Source: a virus (taxonomy: Duplodnaviria; Caudoviricetes). From it: a DNA stretch of 64,000 nt. A program made the position numbers and the translations under genes. The number at the start of each line of letters is the position of its first letter. The first letter of the stretch is position 1. The notes beneath the pieces were generated by a model that saw nothing but the letters and a program-made list of their open reading frames with translations, did no database searches and was not told the origin of the DNA. Positions 4,211 to 20,384 of this stretch are shown here, piece by piece. The DNA is taken from the IMG/VR virus record IMGVR_UViG_3300043395_004688; one strand, 5' to 3'.

Positions 4211-4819
4211 ATGTCGATGAAGTTTGCAGAAACTCTGAAGTTTATCAAAGATATCAACATTGAAGGCGATCTCTTAGAAATTGGCTCTGACCGTGGAGAT
4301 GGAAGTACCTATATTTTTGCCACGCTAGCCAAAAATCTTGGGCGCCAGCTGTTTTCGGTAGATGTAGATTCTGATGTCATTGAAAAAAACCGAGAAGAAT
4401 TTAAACAATTACCCTTTGACTTACCTGTTGATTTTTTTAATCAAACCGGTGAACAGTTTTTAGAAGACCATAACAATCTTCGCTTTAGCATAGTGCTACT
4501 TGATAATTTTGATTGGGACTGGAACCCACATAACAGCGAATCTCATGTTCTAGAACAACAAAAAAAATATCGAGAACGGTTTGGCTTAGAAATGAATAAT
4601 CATCAAAGTCAATTTACCCATTTACGACAAGCACTGATGCTTACTCATATGCTAACGGATGAAGCAATAGTAATATGCGATGACACATATTGGGCACATG
4701 AATACGGAACATACACTGGCAAGTGTGGTGCTGTTATACCTTACCTAGAAACCTTAGGATTTAATGTAGTATTAAACAAAGATCATGGCATTGTTATGCT
4801 AAGAAAGAATAATCAATGA
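4211..4819 (+). CDS. Class I SAM-dependent methyltransferase
   Basis: LLEIGSDRGDGST motif I, SVDVD, LLDNFD, VICDDT; GGAG upstream of ATG 4211. Confidence 0.7.
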   Translation: MSMKFAETLKFIKDINIEGDLLEIGSDRGDGSTYIFATLAKNLGRQLFSVDVDSDVIEKNREEFKQLPFDLPVDFFNQTGEQFLEDHNNLRFSIVLLDNFDWDWNPHNSESHVLEQQKKYRERFGLEMNNHQSQFTHLRQALMLTHMLTDEAIVICDDTYWAHEYGTYTGKCGAVIPYLETLGFNVVLNKDHGIVMLRKNNQ

Positions 4820-5586
4820 AAATAGTCTTAATCACCGGAGGCTTTGATCCAATACACAGCGGACACATTGCCTATATAACCGAAGCCAAAAAGCTAGGCG
4901 ACCTATTAATTGTGGGAGTCAACAGCGATGCTTGGCTTGAACGCAAAAAGGGACGAGCCTTTTTGCCCATGCACGAACGGCTGGCAATTGTAGCTGGCAT
5001 TCGAGGTGTTGATCAAACACTTATCTTCAATGACAACGATGACTCGGCTTGCGATGCTATTCAAAAAGTAAAAAACAGCTACAGCTATGCTGAACTTGTT
5101 TTTGCCAATGGCGGAGATCGAACCTCCGAAAATATTCCAGAAATGCGTATTGAAGGTGTGGAGTTTGTGTTTGGCGTAGGAGGTTCCAATAAAAAGAACA
5201 GCAGTAGTTGGATCTTGCGCGACTGGAAGCAGCCCAAAACAGACAGGGCATGGGGCGAGTATCGTGTGCTTTATGATCATCCAATGATTGGTTCTGCTAC
5301 CAAGGTCAAAGAGCTTACTGTAGAGCCAGGAAAAAAGCTCAGCCTACAGCGACACAAAAATCGTCACGAATATTGGTTTGTGGTTGAAGGCCGTTGCGAT
5401 GTTTACGGTGCATTGCCTGGGGGCTACGCGATACCTCCTAGAACCTTAGGTCCGCATGAAACCATGGAAATCCAAGCCGGAGAATGGCACCAGCTGACCA
5501 ATCCTTATAACGAACCATGCCGGCTCATTGAGATCCAGTATGGTTCACAATGTGAAGAAGCCGATATTGAACGAAATCCTGGTTGA
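4816..5586 (+). CDS. Cytidylyltransferase-family domain fused to a mannose-6-phosphate isomerase type II-like cupin
   Basis: ITGGFDPIHSGH (HxGH), FANGGDR; C-terminal WGEYRVL..VKELTVEPGKKLSLQRH..RHEYWFVVEG. Confidence 0.85.
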   Translation: MKIVLITGGFDPIHSGHIAYITEAKKLGDLLIVGVNSDAWLERKKGRAFLPMHERLAIVAGIRGVDQTLIFNDNDDSACDAIQKVKNSYSYAELVFANGGDRTSENIPEMRIEGVEFVFGVGGSNKKNSSSWILRDWKQPKTDRAWGEYRVLYDHPMIGSATKVKELTVEPGKKLSLQRHKNRHEYWFVVEGRCDVYGALPGGYAIPPRTLGPHETMEIQAGEWHQLTNPYNEPCRLIEIQYGSQCEEADIERNPG

Positions 5587-5612
5587 CTTACACCGTTCGG
5601 TACTGTTATACT
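5583..5612 (+). promoter_or_regulatory. Sigma70-type promoter
   Basis: TTGACT-18 nt-TATACT with TG extended -10; followed by a small hairpin and GGAG RBS. Confidence 0.75.
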
Positions 5613-5650
5613 CAGTGGGTAGTTTATTACTCATACCATAGGAGATTCAA

Positions 5651-5902
5651 ATGAGTTTTTCACCCGAGCAGATTGCCAAGCTTACCAAGGTGATCCAGGA
5701 AGGCGTTCAAGTCAAGCGTGAGATTGATGATCTTAATGTTGGACTCAAGGAAACTGTTGCAGCCATTGCTGAAGAAATGAATATCAAGGCAGCGGTGCTT
5801 AATAAAGCCATTACCAAGGCGTTCAAGGGCGACTTTGACAAGGATCAAACGGATCTCGAAGCCGTTGAAGAAATTCTTATTGTAACCAAGAACAAGGCCT
5901 AA
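5651..5902 (+). CDS. DsbA/GapR-like small dsDNA-binding protein
   Basis: 83-aa all-helical pattern EIDDLNVGLKETV..IAEEMNIKAAVLNKAI resembling T4 DsbA/GapR; strong RBS. Confidence 0.6.
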   Translation: MSFSPEQIAKLTKVIQEGVQVKREIDDLNVGLKETVAAIAEEMNIKAAVLNKAITKAFKGDFDKDQTDLEAVEEILIVTKNKA

Positions 5903-6193
5903 GTGAAATCACTGCTATTAAGTGTTCGTGACTACATTGTAGAGGATTGGCGAGAAAATCCTCTACGGTGTGTGCTGGAAATTTCTGCATGGTTTCTCAG
6001 CATTGGTTGCGCGATCACTATGGCCTTGACTCTGCCCAATCCGCCATTCCTAATCTTATATCCCTTGTTTATCACCCAATGTGCTATCTTTGCATGGGCT
6101 TGCAAAACACGCGGTAGTACAGGATTGCTGGCCAACTACTTGTTGTTGGTTACCATTGACTCTGTGGCCTTAGTGAGATTGATAATGCAATGA
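5903..6193 (+). CDS. Hypothetical membrane protein
   Basis: Three hydrophobic segments; starts right after the upstream stop. Confidence 0.6.
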   Translation: MKSLLLSVRDYIVEDWRENPLRCVLEISAWFLSIGCAITMALTLPNPPFLILYPLFITQCAIFAWACKTRGSTGLLANYLLLVTIDSVALVRLIMQ

Positions 6194-6303
6194 AAGACGA
6201 TTGGTCATTCATACTGCTAATCATCCTGTTGATGCTTTTGTTTTGGGGAGAGCCAGATCTGTTTGATGCGATTCGGGCATATTTGATTCAATCTCTTCGA
6301 TGA
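6190..6303 (+). CDS. 37-aa single-TM peptide, not in the ORF track
   Basis: MKDDWSFILLIILLMLLFWGEPDLFDAIRAYLIQSLR; fills the gap exactly, with ATGA overlaps at both ends. Confidence 0.65.
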   Translation: MKDDWSFILLIILLMLLFWGEPDLFDAIRAYLIQSLR

Positions 6304-6527
6304 AAACTGATCAGGTTGCCAAATTCGTAATTTTACCAATAGCACATGCTTATCATAGTCCCACATTGTTTGTGTCAGATTACAAATGGTGGTGCAGCAA
6401 CCAAGAAGAAATTGAAACATGGATGAGAGAAAACTTACCCAATGGTACTTCGCACCTGCAAGGTATGGTTCTTTCATTTGAATCGGTTGAAGATCGTGCT
6501 ATGTTTTTACTTAGATTTGGTTTATGA
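6300..6527 (+). CDS. Small paralogue family member 1
   Basis: ETWMRENL ... VLSFESVEDRAMFLLRFGL. Confidence 0.75.
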   Translation: MKTDQVAKFVILPIAHAYHSPTLFVSDYKWWCSNQEEIETWMRENLPNGTSHLQGMVLSFESVEDRAMFLLRFGL

Positions 6528-6914
6528 GTGCTGGCTATGAAATACGAAATAAAAAGCATGTTTCAATTACCATCAGGGAGATATATTCCTCGCGGCCTCA
6601 ATATTATTGAGAAACTTTGGTGGCGATTTGTGCCCGGAGTTGTTATTAATGTAAAGTGGCCTAAAGGTGCAGTGGTAGTTGGACCAAATAGCAGAAGCTG
6701 GGACGGTGTTACAAATCCTTGTGTGCGCCAATTAGTAGAAAGTGCTGATCCAAACGATCACTACCGGCCTTGGTTAGAAAAACATGTAGGCCGCCAAGGA
6801 CGAGATTGGGATTGGGGCTTGACCAATAATGATGCCACTGACAACAGATTGACCATAAAGATTAGACAGAAGCATCAAGACTCTGCCGTAATTGCCAAAC
6901 TGCAATGGTCATGA
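6528..6914 (+). CDS. Small paralogue family member 2 (N-terminally extended)
   Basis: PWLEKHVG ... LTIKIRQKHQDSAVIAKLQWS. Confidence 0.7.
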   Translation: MLAMKYEIKSMFQLPSGRYIPRGLNIIEKLWWRFVPGVVINVKWPKGAVVVGPNSRSWDGVTNPCVRQLVESADPNDHYRPWLEKHVGRQGRDWDWGLTNNDATDNRLTIKIRQKHQDSAVIAKLQWS

Positions 6915-7186
6915 AAACAGCAACACAAGTCTTAGAAGACCAAATTGCTGATGAATTATCTAGGCAATTGGCAGAGAAAATTGATTTTGAAGTCCTGTGT
7001 AGTTTGCTTGTACAAATAGGTTGGATACAAGTTAAATTAGAAGATGTGTTGCAACCAAGCAAACAAACAGCTGGCATGGTTAATTGGCTACACAAAGAGT
7101 GTTCTGGACACTGGAGGCATCGTGGCAAAACATTTGTATTTGAAAACAAGGAAGACGCTGTCTTATTTAGATTGACATGGGTGTAA
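6911..7186 (+). CDS. Small paralogue family member 3
   Basis: NWLHKECSG ... TFVFENKEDAVLFRLTWV; ATGA overlap at 6911. Confidence 0.75.
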   Translation: MKTATQVLEDQIADELSRQLAEKIDFEVLCSLLVQIGWIQVKLEDVLQPSKQTAGMVNWLHKECSGHWRHRGKTFVFENKEDAVLFRLTWV

Positions 7187-7190
7187 ATAG

Positions 7191-7403
7191 ATGCGTCATC
7201 TCAAACGAAATCTTTGGCCTTTTAAAATTAAGCTAGATGTAGTAGATTCAAATCTAAGCATTGACGCTGTTGAACTTTGGCTAAGCGAAACCTGCGGATC
7301 ATTCAAATCAAATTGGAATGCAGTATACCATGCCAACTATACTGATTTTTATTTTAAAAACGGTGAGGATGCCATGCTTTTTAAATTGCAATTTGGATAC
7401 TGA
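7191..7403 (+). CDS. Small paralogue family member 4
   Basis: LWLSETCG ... DFYFKNGEDAMLFKLQFGY. Confidence 0.75.
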   Translation: MRHLKRNLWPFKIKLDVVDSNLSIDAVELWLSETCGSFKSNWNAVYHANYTDFYFKNGEDAMLFKLQFGY

Positions 7404-7405
7404 AC

Positions 7406-7729
7406 ATGCCTAAGATTATAAAAATGGATAAGCGACACGCAGGGCACCCGCACTTTACATATTATCTAAAGCCGGTGAGTTCTGAAGATAACTTTCACAA
7501 TCTCAGAGCATGGTGTTGGGAAACTTGGGGGCCTAGCAAAGGTCTGCATGACTGGCTAAGAGCCAATGCTGATCTCAAAAACATATTGCATCCGTGGCAA
7601 CCAGATCCTGAAACAGAAGACCGTTGTCAAAATCCTCACTGGTGTTGGCTTGAGGACCAATACCGCCGGCGCATAATGTTTGCGGGTGCAGATGAAGTGG
7701 CCCTGTACAAGTTAACCTATGGGCTATGA
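7406..7729 (+). CDS. Small paralogue family member 5
   Basis: AWCWETWG ... RIMFAGADEVALYKLTYGL. Confidence 0.75.
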   Translation: MPKIIKMDKRHAGHPHFTYYLKPVSSEDNFHNLRAWCWETWGPSKGLHDWLRANADLKNILHPWQPDPETEDRCQNPHWCWLEDQYRRRIMFAGADEVALYKLTYGL

Positions 7730-8016
7730 CCTTACCTAAAATACAAGTTCATCACTGGCATTACAATGATGGTATCGTTTTGGTGCCACCATTACTGCGG
7801 CTGGCCAATCAAAAGGAATCAGAATTTTGTGCTGAATTAGTAGGCTGGCATTGTTGCGTTTACACCAATGACTATGATGGTTTCTTTTTATGGATGGAAA
7901 AACATTGCCCCAGAGCGGAATGTATTTCAAGGTTTAACAGCGGCGATCCAATGATTACTGTACATATCTCAGATCAAGAAGAAGCGGCATATTTTAAATT
8001 ACATTTTCAAACATGA
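7726..8016 (+). CDS. Small paralogue family member 6
   Basis: LWMEKHCP ... TVHISDQEEAAYFKLHFQT. Confidence 0.75.
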   Translation: MTLPKIQVHHWHYNDGIVLVPPLLRLANQKESEFCAELVGWHCCVYTNDYDGFFLWMEKHCPRAECISRFNSGDPMITVHISDQEEAAYFKLHFQT

Positions 8017-8261
8017 AATGGTTTTGTGCTATCCATGTTTGGCGTAATGGTTGGGGACATACTGTGGTACTGAAAGAAAATCCCAAATACAGTTCTCCTC
8101 AATACTATGGCACTACTGTTGACCCAGATGAGATGGAAGAGGTAATAGCATGGACCGATGAAAATGCCCAAGCACGACGAATTTCATATGATACCTGGCA
8201 ATTCAAGTCTCGCAGGGCAGCAGAGGAGTTTATCATGCTGTATAATCTTAGGTGGGTCTAA
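8013..8261 (+). CDS. Small paralogue family member 7
   Basis: AWTDENAQ ... TWQFKSRRAAEEFIMLYNLRWV. Confidence 0.75.
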   Translation: MKWFCAIHVWRNGWGHTVVLKENPKYSSPQYYGTTVDPDEMEEVIAWTDENAQARRISYDTWQFKSRRAAEEFIMLYNLRWV

Positions 8262-8542
8262 TGCCCCTAGAGGTGCATAAACAGCAACTAACTGCAAAAT
8301 TTAGCTGGATAACTAGAGTTGACATAGACGAATTAGGGTATAACATTAACAATGTACCTTGGCTATTTGACATTTTGCTATGGTCTGATTCGTGGTCTTG
8401 GGAATGTACTACCACCATCAACAGCAAAAGCGACAACATTCAATGGAAGTTTGATTCCAGCCAAGAGCTTGAAGAATTTCTAATGTTGTTTGCACTAAAA
8501 TGGGGGAAGATGACACATGTCCGATTCTTGGACGATGATTGA
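8261..8542 (+). CDS. Small paralogue family member 8
   Basis: QWKFDSSQELEEFLMLFALKWG; TAATG overlap places the start at 8261. Confidence 0.7.
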   Translation: MPLEVHKQQLTAKFSWITRVDIDELGYNINNVPWLFDILLWSDSWSWECTTTINSKSDNIQWKFDSSQELEEFLMLFALKWGKMTHVRFLDDD

Positions 8543-8822
8543 CGCCGACGGGCGAGAGTTTGGTATTGACATTGTGGGGTCAAGGCAACTGGGAGAACTG
8601 TGTATCTACTATTGTTTTCCTTACTACATACCCAAAGGTTCAACGCCGCCCTATCCTGGTTTTGAGTGTTTGAGGATTTGGTTGAATTTAAATTTCTCCA
8701 GTGTGGCCCACGAAGTGGTTACAAAAGGAGTGCCAATGGATACTAAAAAATCATGGGCTACATTAGAAGTAACTTTCAGCGATCCTGAGGAAGCTATGTT
8801 GTTTAGGCTAATGTGCAGTTGA
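8517..8822 (+). CDS. Small paralogue family member 9
   Basis: IWLNLNFS ... EVTFSDPEEAMLFRLMCS; start could be 8517 or 8535. Confidence 0.7.
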   Translation: MSDSWTMIDADGREFGIDIVGSRQLGELCIYYCFPYYIPKGSTPPYPGFECLRIWLNLNFSSVAHEVVTKGVPMDTKKSWATLEVTFSDPEEAMLFRLMCS

Positions 8823-8847
8823 CATTGCCACATACACACAGTATAAT
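8819..8847 (+). promoter_or_regulatory. Sigma70-type promoter; -10 lies in the loop of an 8-bp inverted repeat
   Basis: TTGACA-17-TATAAT; ATG 5 nt later; catacaca (8831-8838) pairs with tgtgtatg (8848-8855). Confidence 0.85.
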
Positions 8848-8852
8848 TGTGT

Positions 8853-9269
8853 ATGCAAATCGTTGTACATTCAAGCAGCCCCGGTAAACAGGCCTTGGTT
8901 GAGGCTAGTGCAAGGTTCTACGAACAAGAACTTAAATTACAAAAAAGCAAGTACACTCTTGAGATCCAATTTAAGAAAGGCTTGGCCAAGCGAAAAGGCA
9001 TGAGAGGTTGTGTAAGTGACATCGCTCCAAAACATTTGATCATGTTACTAGACTCCAATCTGCAAGATCATGCGTTGTTTGAAACCCTTGCACACGAAAT
9101 GATTCATGTCAAGCAATATGCTCGAGGACAGTTTAGGATTGACAGAAACAAAACCATATGGTTAGGTAAACCACTCAAACTAAAATATTATCAACAGCCC
9201 TGGGAGATCGAAGCCATGGGTAAAGAAAAAGTACTTGCTAGTAAAATATACAGTATTATTTGGAGTTAG
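8853..9269 (+). CDS. HExxH zinc metallopeptidase-like protein, probably leaderless
   Basis: LAHEMIHVKQY ... QPWEIEA. Confidence 0.75.
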   Translation: MQIVVHSSSPGKQALVEASARFYEQELKLQKSKYTLEIQFKKGLAKRKGMRGCVSDIAPKHLIMLLDSNLQDHALFETLAHEMIHVKQYARGQFRIDRNKTIWLGKPLKLKYYQQPWEIEAMGKEKVLASKIYSIIWS

Positions 9270-9270
9270 C

Positions 9271-9492
9271 ATGTACGAAGAGTTTACTTGGACAAATTCC
9301 AAACATGACCCTATGATAATCGAGATCAAGCATCACGGTCATGTGGTAATGCATTTCTTTCTCGGTGAAGCCATGGAAGGTGCCGGTAGAGCTCGTGTAA
9401 TGAGTCATGTCCGTGAGTGCGATCACAGTCCTTGGCTGAGTCAGTGGCGAGAACATGCCGAACAAGAAATGCTAGCAAAGTTAGGAAGATAA
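9271..9492 (+). CDS. Hypothetical protein
   Basis: GGAG RBS before ATG 9271; in operon register. Confidence 0.6.
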   Translation: MYEEFTWTNSKHDPMIIEIKHHGHVVMHFFLGEAMEGAGRARVMSHVRECDHSPWLSQWREHAEQEMLAKLGR

Positions 9493-9495
9493 ACT

Positions 9496-9891
9496 ATGAA
9501 TGATGAAATTAAAAAGCAAGAGGTATTAGATCAATTACATGAAGCTGGCCGACAATTTAACAAAGCCATGCAAGAATATCAAGACTCTTGCAACAGCTAT
9601 TGGAACAGTCTTGGTCCTGAAGAACAACTCATGGCATTTTGCGCCATGGTAGAGCGTCTTCACCGCGGCGAAATTGAACACAAGCGTAGCTACCGAGGCA
9701 TGCTCTATGATGTATTTGGTTGGGGACCAGAAGCCTATGCACCTGCTCAGCTTGCTGGCTTTTTAGATTTGCATAACTCAATTTATGACTTTGATGACCT
9801 CTTGGTAGTATTTAAGAATACTCTTGAGGAATTAAACATTCAGGTTCCTGATGACCAACTCAGCGAAGCCTTGGCAAAACACTTTTACTAA
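9496..9891 (+). CDS. Hypothetical protein
   Basis: AGGA RBS; 131-aa helical ORF in operon register. Confidence 0.65.
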   Translation: MNDEIKKQEVLDQLHEAGRQFNKAMQEYQDSCNSYWNSLGPEEQLMAFCAMVERLHRGEIEHKRSYRGMLYDVFGWGPEAYAPAQLAGFLDLHNSIYDFDDLLVVFKNTLEELNIQVPDDQLSEALAKHFY

Positions 9892-9908
9892 TAGGAACTA
9901 CATACTAG

Positions 9909-12554
9909 ATGTTTGTTGACGCCTATCATGATAAAAAGACTGAAGTCATCCATGTGGTTGAACGAGTGGATGGCCAGAGAATTCTCAAAGAATATCCTGC
10001 TCGCTATGTACTGTATTACCCAGACAACAAGGGTAAGTTCACTGACATCTCCGGCAATCGAGTAACGCGAGTAATGGTCAGTAATCTTGCGGCCTTTGAC
10101 AAAGAACGCAGGATTCACAACAACAAGAGACTCTGTGAAAGCGATTACAGGCCGCTTAACCGCTGTCTTGAAGAACAGTACGGTGGTCAAGAAGCACCCA
10201 ATCTGCATGTGGCTTTCTTTGACATTGAGGTGGCCTATGACAAGGTCAAGGGCTTTGCCGACCCCAGTGATCCTTTCAACAATGTCACTGCCATTACCAC
10301 TTACTTAGGGTGGCTGGATAGAAACATTACCTTGGTTATAAAGCCAGATGAAATGCCTGTAAACCAGGCAGCAGAAATTGCTGGCAAGTTTGATGATACC
10401 ATACTCTGTGAAGATGAAAAGCAGATGTTGGAGATGTGGCTGGATCTGATTCAGGATGCAGATGTCTACACAGGTTGGAACAGCGAAGGCTTTGATATTC
10501 CTTATCTCACTAATCGCATCACTCGTGTGCTTGGCAAAGAACTGACTCGTAAGATGTGCCTGTGGGACCAGTTTCCTACAAAGAGATATTTTGAAAAATA
10601 TGGTAAGGAACTTGAGACCTATGATCCTATTGGTCGAGTTCACCTAGATTATCTAGAACTTTATCGCAAGTACAACTATCATGAGATGCACACATACCGC
10701 TTGGATGCCATTGGCGAGTATGAAATTGGTGAGAAAAAGATTCCATATGAAGGCACACTTGATCAATTGTACAACAATGATTTTGAAAAGTTCATTGCCT
10801 ATAACAGGCAGGATGTTGTGTTGCTCAAAAAACTCGACGACAAACTTAAATTCATTGAACTTACCAACCTGATTAGTCATGCCAATACTGTAGGACTTAG
10901 AGCTACACTTGGAGCGGTGGCTGTCACTGACCAAGCAGTTATCAACGAAGCTCATCGCCTTAACATGGTTGTTCCTGACAGACCGCGGAGAGGAGACAGC
11001 GAGGACAATGCTGCCGCAGGTGCCTATGTTGCTGTACCCAAGCAAGGCATGCACGAGTGGATTGGCTCCATGGACATTAACAGTCTGTATCCAAGTTTGA
11101 TTCGTGCGCTAAACATGAGCCCTGAAACCATTGTTGGCCAGGTGCGCCAAACAAGAACCAATGAAGGCATTCGAGAATTCAAAGAAGCCGGAAAGGGCAT
11201 TGCTGAGTTTTGGGAAGGTAAGTTTGCCTGCTTTGAATATGAAAGTGTAATGAATCGAGAGATTGGTACCAGTGAAATTGTTGACTGGGCCGATGGAACC
11301 AGCACTGAAATGAGTAGTGCCGAGGTATACGACTATGTGTTCCATGGCGGTAAGCCTTTGATGATCAGTGGCAATGGCACTATCTTTAGATACGATGCCA
11401 AGGGTGTTATTCCTGGTCTTCTGGAACGCTGGTATGCAGAGCGTAAAGAGCTACAAAAGAAAGCTAAGTCAGCCACCGATCCTAAAGAGTTTGAGTTTTG
11501 GGACAAGCGGCAGCTGGTTAAAAAGATTAACCTTAACTCAGCATACGGCGCCTTGCTTAACGCAGGTTCAAGATTCTTTGACCAACGACTTGGGCAGTCA
11601 ACTACCCTTTGCGGTCGACTAGTTGCCAGGCACATGGCTGGTGCTGTCAACGATTGCTTAACCGGTGTAAAGGATCATATGGGAGATGCTATCATCTATG
11701 GTGATACAGACTCGGTATATTTCAGTGCTTATCCTTTGTTTAAAGATCAAATTGAAAAGGGTGAGATCGCTTGGACAGATGAAAAAGCCATTGAACTGTA
11801 TGATGCCATTAGTGAACAGGTGAATGCCACATTTCCGGCTTTTATGAACTATGCCTTTAACGCACCAGCTGCACAAGGCGAGATTATCAAAGCAGGTCGC
11901 GAGCTAGTTGCAAGCAAGGGCATCTACATGACCAAGAAGCGTTATGCTGTTCTTATTGTTGATAAGGAAGGCAAGCGCAAAGATGTCAATGGATCCACTG
12001 GTGAACTCAAAGCCATGGGTCTTGACATGAAGCGAGCAGATACTCCCGAATTCATGCAAAGGTTCTTGGAAGAAATCCTAACAATGACTTTGGAAGGCAA
12101 AACGGAAGCTGAAGTTATGGCTCGTGTCAAGCAGTTCCGTGAGGAGTTTAAGAGCCGTCCGGGTTGGGAAAAGGGTACACCCAAGCGTGTTAACAACCTA
12201 ACTAAGCATACTGATGTTTATAAGAAAACAGGCAAGTGTGGAGTGGGACATGCTATGGCAGCTATCAATTGGAACAGGATCAAAGAAGCCTATGGCGATC
12301 GGCGTAGCATGGATATCACTGACGGGCAAAAGGCCATTGTGTGCAAACTAAGAAGCAACCCGTTGCAGATTAACTCAATTGCCTATCCCATTGATGAGAT
12401 GAACCTACCAGATTGGTTTAAGCAGTTGCCCTTTGATCATGTGGCCATGGAAGAAACTATCATTGACAGCAAAATTGATAACCTTCTGGGCGTACTAAAA
12501 TGGGACCTTAGCCAAAGCAAGGACCGCGGATTGATCAATGAGTTATTCTCTTAA
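9909..12554 (+). CDS. Family B DNA polymerase (T4 gp43-like)
   Basis: Exonuclease motifs FFDIE, WNSEGFD, YNRQD; polymerase motifs DINSLYPS, KINLNSAYG, YGDTDS; C-terminal LINELFS clamp-binding-like peptide. Confidence 0.97.
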   Translation: MFVDAYHDKKTEVIHVVERVDGQRILKEYPARYVLYYPDNKGKFTDISGNRVTRVMVSNLAAFDKERRIHNNKRLCESDYRPLNRCLEEQYGGQEAPNLHVAFFDIEVAYDKVKGFADPSDPFNNVTAITTYLGWLDRNITLVIKPDEMPVNQAAEIAGKFDDTILCEDEKQMLEMWLDLIQDADVYTGWNSEGFDIPYLTNRITRVLGKELTRKMCLWDQFPTKRYFEKYGKELETYDPIGRVHLDYLELYRKYNYHEMHTYRLDAIGEYEIGEKKIPYEGTLDQLYNNDFEKFIAYNRQDVVLLKKLDDKLKFIELTNLISHANTVGLRATLGAVAVTDQAVINEAHRLNMVVPDRPRRGDSEDNAAAGAYVAVPKQGMHEWIGSMDINSLYPSLIRALNMSPETIVGQVRQTRTNEGIREFKEAGKGIAEFWEGKFACFEYESVMNREIGTSEIVDWADGTSTEMSSAEVYDYVFHGGKPLMISGNGTIFRYDAKGVIPGLLERWYAERKELQKKAKSATDPKEFEFWDKRQLVKKINLNSAYGALLNAGSRFFDQRLGQSTTLCGRLVARHMAGAVNDCLTGVKDHMGDAIIYGDTDSVYFSAYPLFKDQIEKGEIAWTDEKAIELYDAISEQVNATFPAFMNYAFNAPAAQGEIIKAGRELVASKGIYMTKKRYAVLIVDKEGKRKDVNGSTGELKAMGLDMKRADTPEFMQRFLEEILTMTLEGKTEAEVMARVKQFREEFKSRPGWEKGTPKRVNNLTKHTDVYKKTGKCGVGHAMAAINWNRIKEAYGDRRSMDITDGQKAIVCKLRSNPLQINSIAYPIDEMNLPDWFKQLPFDHVAMEETIIDSKIDNLLGVLKWDLSQSKDRGLINELFS

Positions 12555-19871: not shown

Positions 19872-20119
19872 TGGAAGTTGTAATTTACAGCAAGGACAAT
19901 TGTCCATACTGCGATATGGCCAAGAACTGGTTCAAACGAAAGAACCTTACTTTTACTGAACACAAAATTGGAACCAATGGTTTTACTAGAGAAATGCTAT
20001 TAGAAGCTGTACCAACGGCAAGAACCGTTCCTCAAATCATCGTTGATGGTGAATTAATTGGTGGCTGGACTGATTTGTGTCAAAGCAAGTTGTATGCCCA
20101 GTACAGTAATTCAAACTGA
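19871..20119 (+). CDS. Glutaredoxin
   Basis: CPYC active site, TVPQI, IGG. Confidence 0.92.
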   Translation: MEVVIYSKDNCPYCDMAKNWFKRKNLTFTEHKIGTNGFTREMLLEAVPTARTVPQIIVDGELIGGWTDLCQSKLYAQYSNSN

Positions 20120-20384
20120 GTATCGGTTAAAAACAGTACTGCCCTTGGAACAAGTGCCTGACCTAAGAAGTTGGCTACAAAATAACCTCGGGCATTCCTC
20201 AACAGCATGGAAGATTGAAACGCACAGTGGATCTTTTTTTAACTGGCGAGGAATTGCAGGTGCTGTTAAATCTAAAAATCCCGAAACTAAATTGCCAGTT
20301 ACTGTAATTGTAACGGTATATGAATTTAAACATTTGCTGATCTTTGCTAAGTCCTGGGAAACCGAGCTATTGCTAGAAGAGTAA
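20094..20384 (+). CDS. Probable dispersed member of the small paralogue family
   Basis: SWLQNNLG ... VIVTVYEFKHLLIFAKSW. Confidence 0.55.
   Translation: MPSTVIQTEYRLKTVLPLEQVPDLRSWLQNNLGHSSTAWKIETHSGSFFNWRGIAGAVKSKNPETKLPVTVIVTVYEFKHLLIFAKSWETELLLEE

Follow-up and report, generated by a model that had tools for sequence, protein, structure and literature searches.

Small early genes of unknown function account for much of every large phage genome, and many proteins of anti-defence and host takeover have come from them. In this study we analyzed an array of small genes in a 64,000-nucleotide (nt) stretch of DNA (hereafter the window) from the IMG/VR virus record IMGVR_UViG_3300043395_004688, where nine open reading frames (ORFs), named m1-m9 in order, follow each other on the + strand from position 6300 to 8822. 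The record as a whole measures 177.7 kb and has a CheckV completeness estimate of 53%. It is that of a T4-like freshwater phage, in which the array lies in a hyperplastic region flanked by a DsbA-like gene and the DNA polymerase gene. Sequence comparisons indicate that the nine ORFs are ancient paralogues from one very divergent family of proteins of 60-130 amino acids (aa), a placement that is solid for seven of the nine, and weaker, though supported, for m2 and m8. We are highly confident that both the family and the plasticity of the array are real, and what is newly recognised here is a large, uncurated protein family in an already known kind of genomic setting. Thousands of 'hypothetical proteins' thereby merge into one recognisable domain, in a family that is clearly under constraint, turns over fast and reaches extreme copy numbers.

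Nine small genes in a row

The array members, together with a dispersed tenth copy in the same window, are given below with their hhalign percentages and their matches to A2, a 56-sequence family profile.

6300..6527, + strand: m1, 75 aa (hhalign 92% to m4; A2 E 5.2e-11)
6528..6914, + strand: m2, 128 aa, divergent, with an N-terminal extension and a start possibly at ATG 6537 (m2 profile, A4, vs A2 77%, E 2e-5; no direct A2 match)
6905..7186, + strand: m3, 93 aa (hhalign 97.3% to m4; A2 E 7.4e-15)
7191..7403, + strand: m4, 70 aa, a near-bare domain (AlphaFold2 pLDDT 85.7, pTM 0.71; A2 E 6.4e-14)
7406..7729, + strand: m5, 107 aa, carrying a long insertion in the helix 1-strand 2 loop (hhalign 92.7% to m3; A2 E 1.9e-12)
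7726..8016, + strand: m6, 96 aa (hhalign 95.5% to m9; A2 E 1.3e-10)
8013..8261, + strand: m7, 82 aa, with four residues inserted into its last helix (hhalign 92% to m4, 95.6% to m8; A2 E 4.7e-10)
8261..8542, + strand: m8, 93 aa from its likely true start at ATG 8261 (listed ORF 8252-8542, from GTG 8252), a divergent m7 relative (no direct A2 match)
8517..8822, + strand: m9, 101 aa, its stop codon within the -35 box of the next promoter (hhalign 95.8% to m4; A2 E 3.2e-8)
20058..20384, + strand: dispersed tenth family member, start codon uncertain (hhalign 86.9% to m4)

An earlier note on this DNA had described the nine ORFs, and all of them lie on the + strand where it placed them, with the C-terminal strings and the W-x-x-E strings that it quoted. 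The shared C-terminal motif on which it relied is less uniform than claimed: the strict pattern as written matches only m3 and m4, and a relaxed version matches six of the 1,024 ORFs in the record, all six in the array, where shuffled sequences would yield 0.12. Chaining of the genes by ATGA and TAATG overlaps holds at 7726 and 8013 (ATGA) and at 8261 (TAATG), but the remaining junctions differ: two genes overlap by 10 nt (6905-6914), two others possibly by 26 nt (8517-8542), and the rest are separated by 0-4 nt. The chain also starts farther upstream than had been said, with three more ORFs ahead of m1. At the DNA level there is, as noted before, no obvious repeat, just matches of 14-25 nt; three such matches (D5-D7) coincide with codons of the shared motif.

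Relationship of the members and their predicted fold

Similarity between the members is weak when they are compared in pairs (best BLAST E 5e-4), and emerges with profiles. In leave-one-out searches with hidden Markov models against the ORFs of the whole record, each left-out member ranked first to fourth, and E fell below 0.01 for m3, m4, m6 and m7. Orthologues of every member exist in 61 related IMG/VR loci, which had been fetched via the polymerase, and when the orthologue alignments were compared profile against profile, m1, m3-m7, m9 and the copy at 20058-20384 were linked at 58-97% probability, while seven unrelated neighbouring gene families, used as controls, reached at most 5%. An iterative search started from m4 recovered 259 ORFs, and all 251 of those within related loci (251/251) lie on the coding strand. 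The two divergent members join through intermediates, m8 at 95.6% to m7 and at 67% (E 5e-5) to A2, and m2 through its own profile against A2 (values listed above), in a register that keeps both the W-x-E helix and the terminal helix. For the tenth member, 15 of 15 orthologues were captured in the family search, and the window's own copy was missed there and by A2. A further member lies outside the window in the same record (G000:C1:33478-33663). Neither m4 nor the metagenomic family representative P0014 found a match by tblastn at E 0.01 in 50,697 phage records, nor did blastn with the entire array.

The proposal of a single small alpha/beta fold with a conserved C-terminal helix is borne out by structure predictions, which cover m4 and m2. 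With A2 as input, the AlphaFold2 model of m4 has the order beta1-alpha1-beta2-beta3-alpha2 (strand 11-16, helix 24-35, strands 42-46 and 50-55, helix 58-68), with a predicted local distance difference test (pLDDT) of 85.7 and a predicted template modelling score (pTM) of 0.71. The same order of elements appears in the C-terminal half of the m2 model (strand 37-43, helix 75-86, strands 94-98 and 107-113, helix 114-127; pLDDT 64.8), and eight of the ten best BFVD neighbours of m2 are also neighbours of m4. As modelled, the domain is a sandwich of about 60 residues, with the consensus W-x-x-E ... F-x-F-x3-ED-A-x2-F-x-L-x-W. Its conserved positions are an invariant Trp in helix 1, a Phe in strand 3, E-[DE]-A at the start of helix 2, and F-x-L-x-W along helix 2, and in the model these residues appear to build the core. 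The N-terminus and the loop between helix 1 and strand 2, both free in sequence and length, would form a variable surface, and no surface residue seems to be conserved across the family.

The neighbours of the m4 model among solved structures are generic ferredoxin-like proteins, namely the ACT domain 5v0s (Z 5.9, root-mean-square deviation (rmsd) 3.0, 56 residues aligned, 25% identity) and the RNA recognition motif (RRM) 6exx (Z 5.8, rmsd 2.0, 57 residues aligned), where Z < 8 is the range of unrelated small sandwiches. The family resembles ferredoxin-like, RRM and ACT sandwiches in having two helices on one face of an antiparallel sheet, but the fourth strand is missing from the three-stranded model, the Z-scores lie below the level that separates relatives, and no sequence family links them: no RRM family matched at E 1 (the nine members) or E 0.1 (the 56 profile members), and there was no Pfam ACT match. 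Foldseek searches found no named relative in the PDB (best E 0.35) or among Swiss-Prot models, which are expected to include T4 proteins (best E 0.19). Viral and metagenomic model libraries hold many uncharacterised look-alikes (TM 0.66-0.87), almost all of them phage proteins. Matches to AFDB clusters include uncharacterised cellular proteins.

Curated sequence libraries likewise offer no usable name, in line with the earlier note, which recognised no named domain: Pfam, PHROGs, NCBIfam and PDB sequences gave only scattered single matches at E 0.001 or weaker, and neither these libraries nor the Swiss-Prot models place the profile in a characterised family. The matches to TumE (0.0026), WCX (0.057) and UPF3X (1.6) were singletons, and were taken as chance. 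Among 1.84 billion protein representatives, A2 retrieved 4,822 clusters (50% identity) at E <=0.001, and the named ones among these clusters are all 'hypothetical protein'. The family is very common in uncultured phages. A2 finds eight matches in this record; 7, 1 and 11 in three related jumbo-sized records; five in Agrobacterium phage Atu_ph07; and 51 in Sinorhizobium phage Phosso, where most stand in tandem arrays of annotated hypothetical genes. There were none in T4, S-PM2, KVP40, GAP32 or Escherichia phage A4. Since Phosso and Atu_ph07 are cultured and tractable, gene deletions, pull-downs and expression screens are now possible. Three metagenomic sequences (P0001, P0002 and P0091) are single ORFs with two family domains in tandem.

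Lineage-specific expansions of one small domain occur in jumbo phages; Bacillus phage G, for one, has about 35 copies of a zinc ribbon (survey of Iyer et al. 2021, PMC7824862). Such expansions are similar to the present family in having tens of copies of a small domain per large genome (51 in Phosso), and in a function guessed from the fold alone. The array family has another fold than the phage G zinc ribbons, and no metal ligands, and its expansion spans a whole clade as well as rhizobial jumbo phages, in tandem arrays. Term searches of the survey turned up no mention of it.

Turnover, constraint and expression

The earlier note had spoken of a gene accordion, a picture that holds for rapid gain, loss, replacement and reordering of genes, but not for recent amplification. 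Within the clade defined by at least 77% polymerase identity, 32 subfamilies occur in arrays of 3-17 genes, and array content and order differ in nearly all of 35 related loci, always upstream of the polymerase gene. The usual order in relatives is 5 6 a 7 9 4 ... 2 f 3, followed by the polymerase, where the window has 1 2 3 4 5 6 7 8 9; the common trio 6-a-7 is broken in the window, 'a' being absent. Recent amplification is ruled out, as the copies share no DNA similarity, and this, together with saturated synonymous divergence (dS), dates the duplications as ancient.

A close view of this turnover comes from the related IMG/VR locus L001, whose polymerase is 98% identical (dS 0.62), and whose array genes are only 51-82% identical, with dS saturated. 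Such divergence beside a nearly identical polymerase argues for replacement from a divergent pool, and not for fast point mutation. The L001 array reads 5 6 7 8 9, then a remnant of the m2 orthologue, then 4; the remnant (L001:8610-8705) is its N-terminal 30 aa, stands ahead of the m4 orthologue, and records a deletion or rearrangement. The genes are nevertheless under constraint, with gene-wide median ratios of nonsynonymous to synonymous substitution (dN/dS) of 0.10-0.24 within orthologue groups, which mark them as coding genes under purifying selection. The members had also been called diversified: the copies are indeed strongly divergent, but the ratios show constraint and not overt diversifying selection.

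Variable small genes between core genes, differing among close relatives, are characteristic of the hyperplastic regions (HPRs) of T4-type phages, which are described together with promoter/stem-loop cassettes (PeSLs) (Arbiol et al. 2010, PMC2839356; Comeau et al. 2014, PMC4122927), and the array shows this feature. It resembles these regions in its small variable genes of unknown function between conserved core genes, in the insertions, deletions and swaps between close relatives, and in a boundary element that joins an early-type promoter to a stem-loop. It differs in that the genes there are unrelated ORFans, whereas here they are paralogues of one domain. The boundary element at 8819-8855 is PeSL-like in its layout; its hairpin encloses the -10 box, and no promoter cassettes stand between the individual array genes.

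The features that flank the array on the + strand are as follows:

5583..5612, + strand: sigma-70-like promoter, TTGACT-18-TATACT with TG, likely start of the array operon
5651..5902, + strand: first gene of the operon, 83 aa, DsbA-like small dsDNA-binding/transcription factor (phrog_12534 E 9.7e-19; phrog_639 'transcriptional regulator' E 2.7e-9)
5903..6193, + strand: 96 aa hydrophobic, probably membrane, protein without a family match
6190..6303, + strand: 37 aa hydrophobic ORF, absent from the ORF list, with ATGA coupling to the 96 aa protein before it and to m1 after it
8819..8855, + strand: perfect TTGACA-17-TATAAT promoter (8819-8847) with a hairpin around its -10 box, closing the array; conserved in L001

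The DsbA-like gene is kept in 45 related loci. In the closing promoter the -35 box overlaps the m9 stop codon, and a 7-8 bp hairpin holds the -10 box in its loop; a cassette inserted in L001 ends exactly at this element. Near-perfect sigma-70-like promoters number seven on the + strand of the window, against 0.74 expected, and no T4-type late motif (TATAAATA or AATAAATA) was found within the operon. The whole stretch 5583-8855 shares its strand with genes for replication and nucleotide metabolism, opposite to the head and tail genes, and a T4-type family B DNA polymerase is encoded at 9909-12554. The array is probably one translationally coupled early transcript from the host-type promoter at 5583-5612. 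Early transcription, as read from the sequence, is suggested by the flanking sigma-70-like promoters, the lack of late motifs in the operon, and the replication-gene strand. Metatranscriptome contigs from two studies are identical to 5642-5899 and 6025-6347, the latter reaching 48 nt into m1; they leave 6348-9546 uncovered, which does not imply silence, and they weigh little as evidence of expression because DNA can be present in such libraries.

Possible roles of the array

Taken as a whole, we consider it a little better than an even bet that the locus is a hyperplastic region of ancient paralogues serving as a kit of early accessory binders. Under this explanation the members would be old copies of one domain of about 60 residues, with a constant core and a variable N-terminus and alpha1-beta2 loop. 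The region would swap, gain, lose and reorder members through recombination that draws on a common pool of divergent alleles, and each retained member would be kept by purifying selection. The proteins would most likely be individually dispensable accessories, each using its variable surface to bind, early in infection, a target of its own in the host or in a rival phage, in the service of host takeover or counter-defence. The functional part, binding of host or rival-phage targets, we hold tentatively, at somewhat less than even credence. It is suggested by a small stable scaffold with variable loops, by a Trp content of 4.9% (1.5% in the background), by isoelectric points that are mixed (58% of members acidic, 20% basic), and by the apparent lack of a conserved surface residue, as well as by many divergent copies per genome that are dispensable singly, purifying selection, and an early-type location.

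Several observations weigh against this explanation. The fold is generic (ferredoxin-like/RRM/ACT, Z <=5.9), and therefore does not favour protein binding over binding of nucleic acids or small molecules. Gene-wide dN/dS gives no sign of positive selection, shuffled sequence yields at least as many promoter matches as 4500-10200 does, and past its 5' end the operon is not covered by the RNA contigs, whose libraries may hold DNA.

The alternative that survives best, unlikely as we judge it, is that the proteins are regulators, i.e. RRM/ACT-like sandwiches that bind RNA, DNA, a metabolite or a signalling nucleotide, the paralogues acting as sponges that tune translation, transcription or immune signalling. 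Its best arguments are the ACT and RRM neighbours, the DsbA-like DNA-binding protein that heads the operon, and the basic fifth of the members. The Z-scores, however, are of a size also seen between unrelated small sandwiches, the model lacks a fourth strand, Pfam yields no RRM or ACT match at E 0.1-1, and most members are acidic, with no family-wide conserved surface residue.

A further alternative links the family to the capsid. Within gp23, the T4 major capsid protein, conservation is highest in the Gol region, a segment that binds EF-Tu and allows the Lit protease to cut (review PMC3014915). Pfam Gp23 is matched by 12 of the 150 best family representatives (best E 7.6e-11), whose N-termini align with the segment flanking GVQPM in the major capsid protein, including that of the phage's own capsid gene. 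P0070, P0006, P0060 and P0074 are among the fusions. One such fusion lies inside the array of a relative (L013:4654-5007, E 4.3e-9), another capsid-segment fusion in the array of the related record G003 (G003:C1:208268-208360), and one metagenomic fusion sits within a small-gene array away from capsid genes. In Phosso, XYS97328.1 (PV764938.1 113923-114303; L071:1124-1504, minus strand) joins to the domain an N-terminus like Gp23 profile positions 305-354 (Y-x-P-Y-x-P-L), a C-terminal capsid segment, and so represents a second kind of capsid-fragment fusion. A Gol-like segment without the domain, partly unannotated, occurs at 182280-182546 of Phosso.

On these grounds the domain could carry peptide segments copied from conserved phage core proteins, mainly the Gol region, and act as a decoy for Lit-like capsid-sensing abortive infection, bind EF-Tu, or poison the capsid assembly of a rival phage, which we regard as quite improbable. 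The likeness to the T4 Gol/Lit system is that a minority of family members bear a copy of the same most conserved capsid segment, but the segment is here fused to a small unrelated domain, in an early-type array. It is lacking in 138 of the 150 representatives and could not be detected in m1-m9, none of which is among the hits of a Gol-region profile at E 10 or of Gp23 at E 1; in the whole record, PF07068 matches the true capsid gene alone, and a likeness by eye of the m1 N-terminus to the capsid string 'VILPVIRR' found no statistical support. Moreover, one would expect a Lit-type system to be switched on, not inhibited, by a copy of the trigger peptide. Decoys made from capsid fragments go unmentioned in a recent review of phage counter-defences.

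Other core proteins may be copied as well. P0021, P0083, P0114 and P0120 have N-terminal extensions with 'AGRQTGKS' and 'LNSAYG', which by eye resemble, respectively, the Walker A motif of the phage's own TerL (LGRQMGKT) and motif B of its own polymerase (NLNSAYG), and one of the 150 representatives matches Pfam DNA_pol_B_2 (E 8e-4). AGRQTGKS as an enzymatic Walker A was rejected, the extension of about 50 aa having no ATPase domain; it may copy a terminase or capsid segment. It is conceivable, as a long shot, that the domain is a display scaffold for short copies of the phage's own most conserved core-protein peptides, with domain-only members such as m1-m9 being the same binders with other baits. 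If so, the family would be an undescribed class of early 'self-mimic' proteins that blunt abortive infection triggered by capsid or core proteins, or sabotage co-infecting relatives. The recurrent Gol-segment fusion offers a concrete first hypothesis, and touches on how phages handle capsid-sensing immunity.

That the members are subunits of one hetero-oligomer, as the earlier note had offered as an option, or of a virion structure, is very improbable. Tight translational coupling speaks for it, and in the model the free edge of the three-stranded sheet could pair with another copy; a homodimer prediction for m4 scored 0.00, no answer, and is uninformative in either direction. A fixed assembly is disfavoured since hardly any two related phages have the same set of members, whose number ranges from 3 to 17, with the 6-a-7 trio broken in the window, and the genes stand among replication genes behind sigma-70-like promoters, apart from the tail and head genes. 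A chance likeness of motifs between unrelated ORFans, or between non-coding ORFs, to which the weak pairwise scores and the two strict motif matches among nine might point, is scarcely credible given the leave-one-out ranks, profile probabilities far above controls, strand-specific matches, thousands of database relatives and purifying selection, and the combined profile, strand and selection evidence rules it out for seven of the nine members.

Beyond the array, the sequencing runs that contain the stretch are chiefly freshwater metagenomes, and the closest named polymerases, at 46-47% identity, are those of Phosso and Atu_ph07. The Atu_ph07 polymerase (L062, 211877-214846) is annotated as two adjacent coding sequences, a split gp43, where the window has a single gene. 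Directly 3' of the array, at 8859-9266, lies a small HExxH protein with a strong match to phrog_10499 (unknown function), and weak matches to DUF6782 (E 1.6e-4) and SprT-like proteins (E 2.3e-3).

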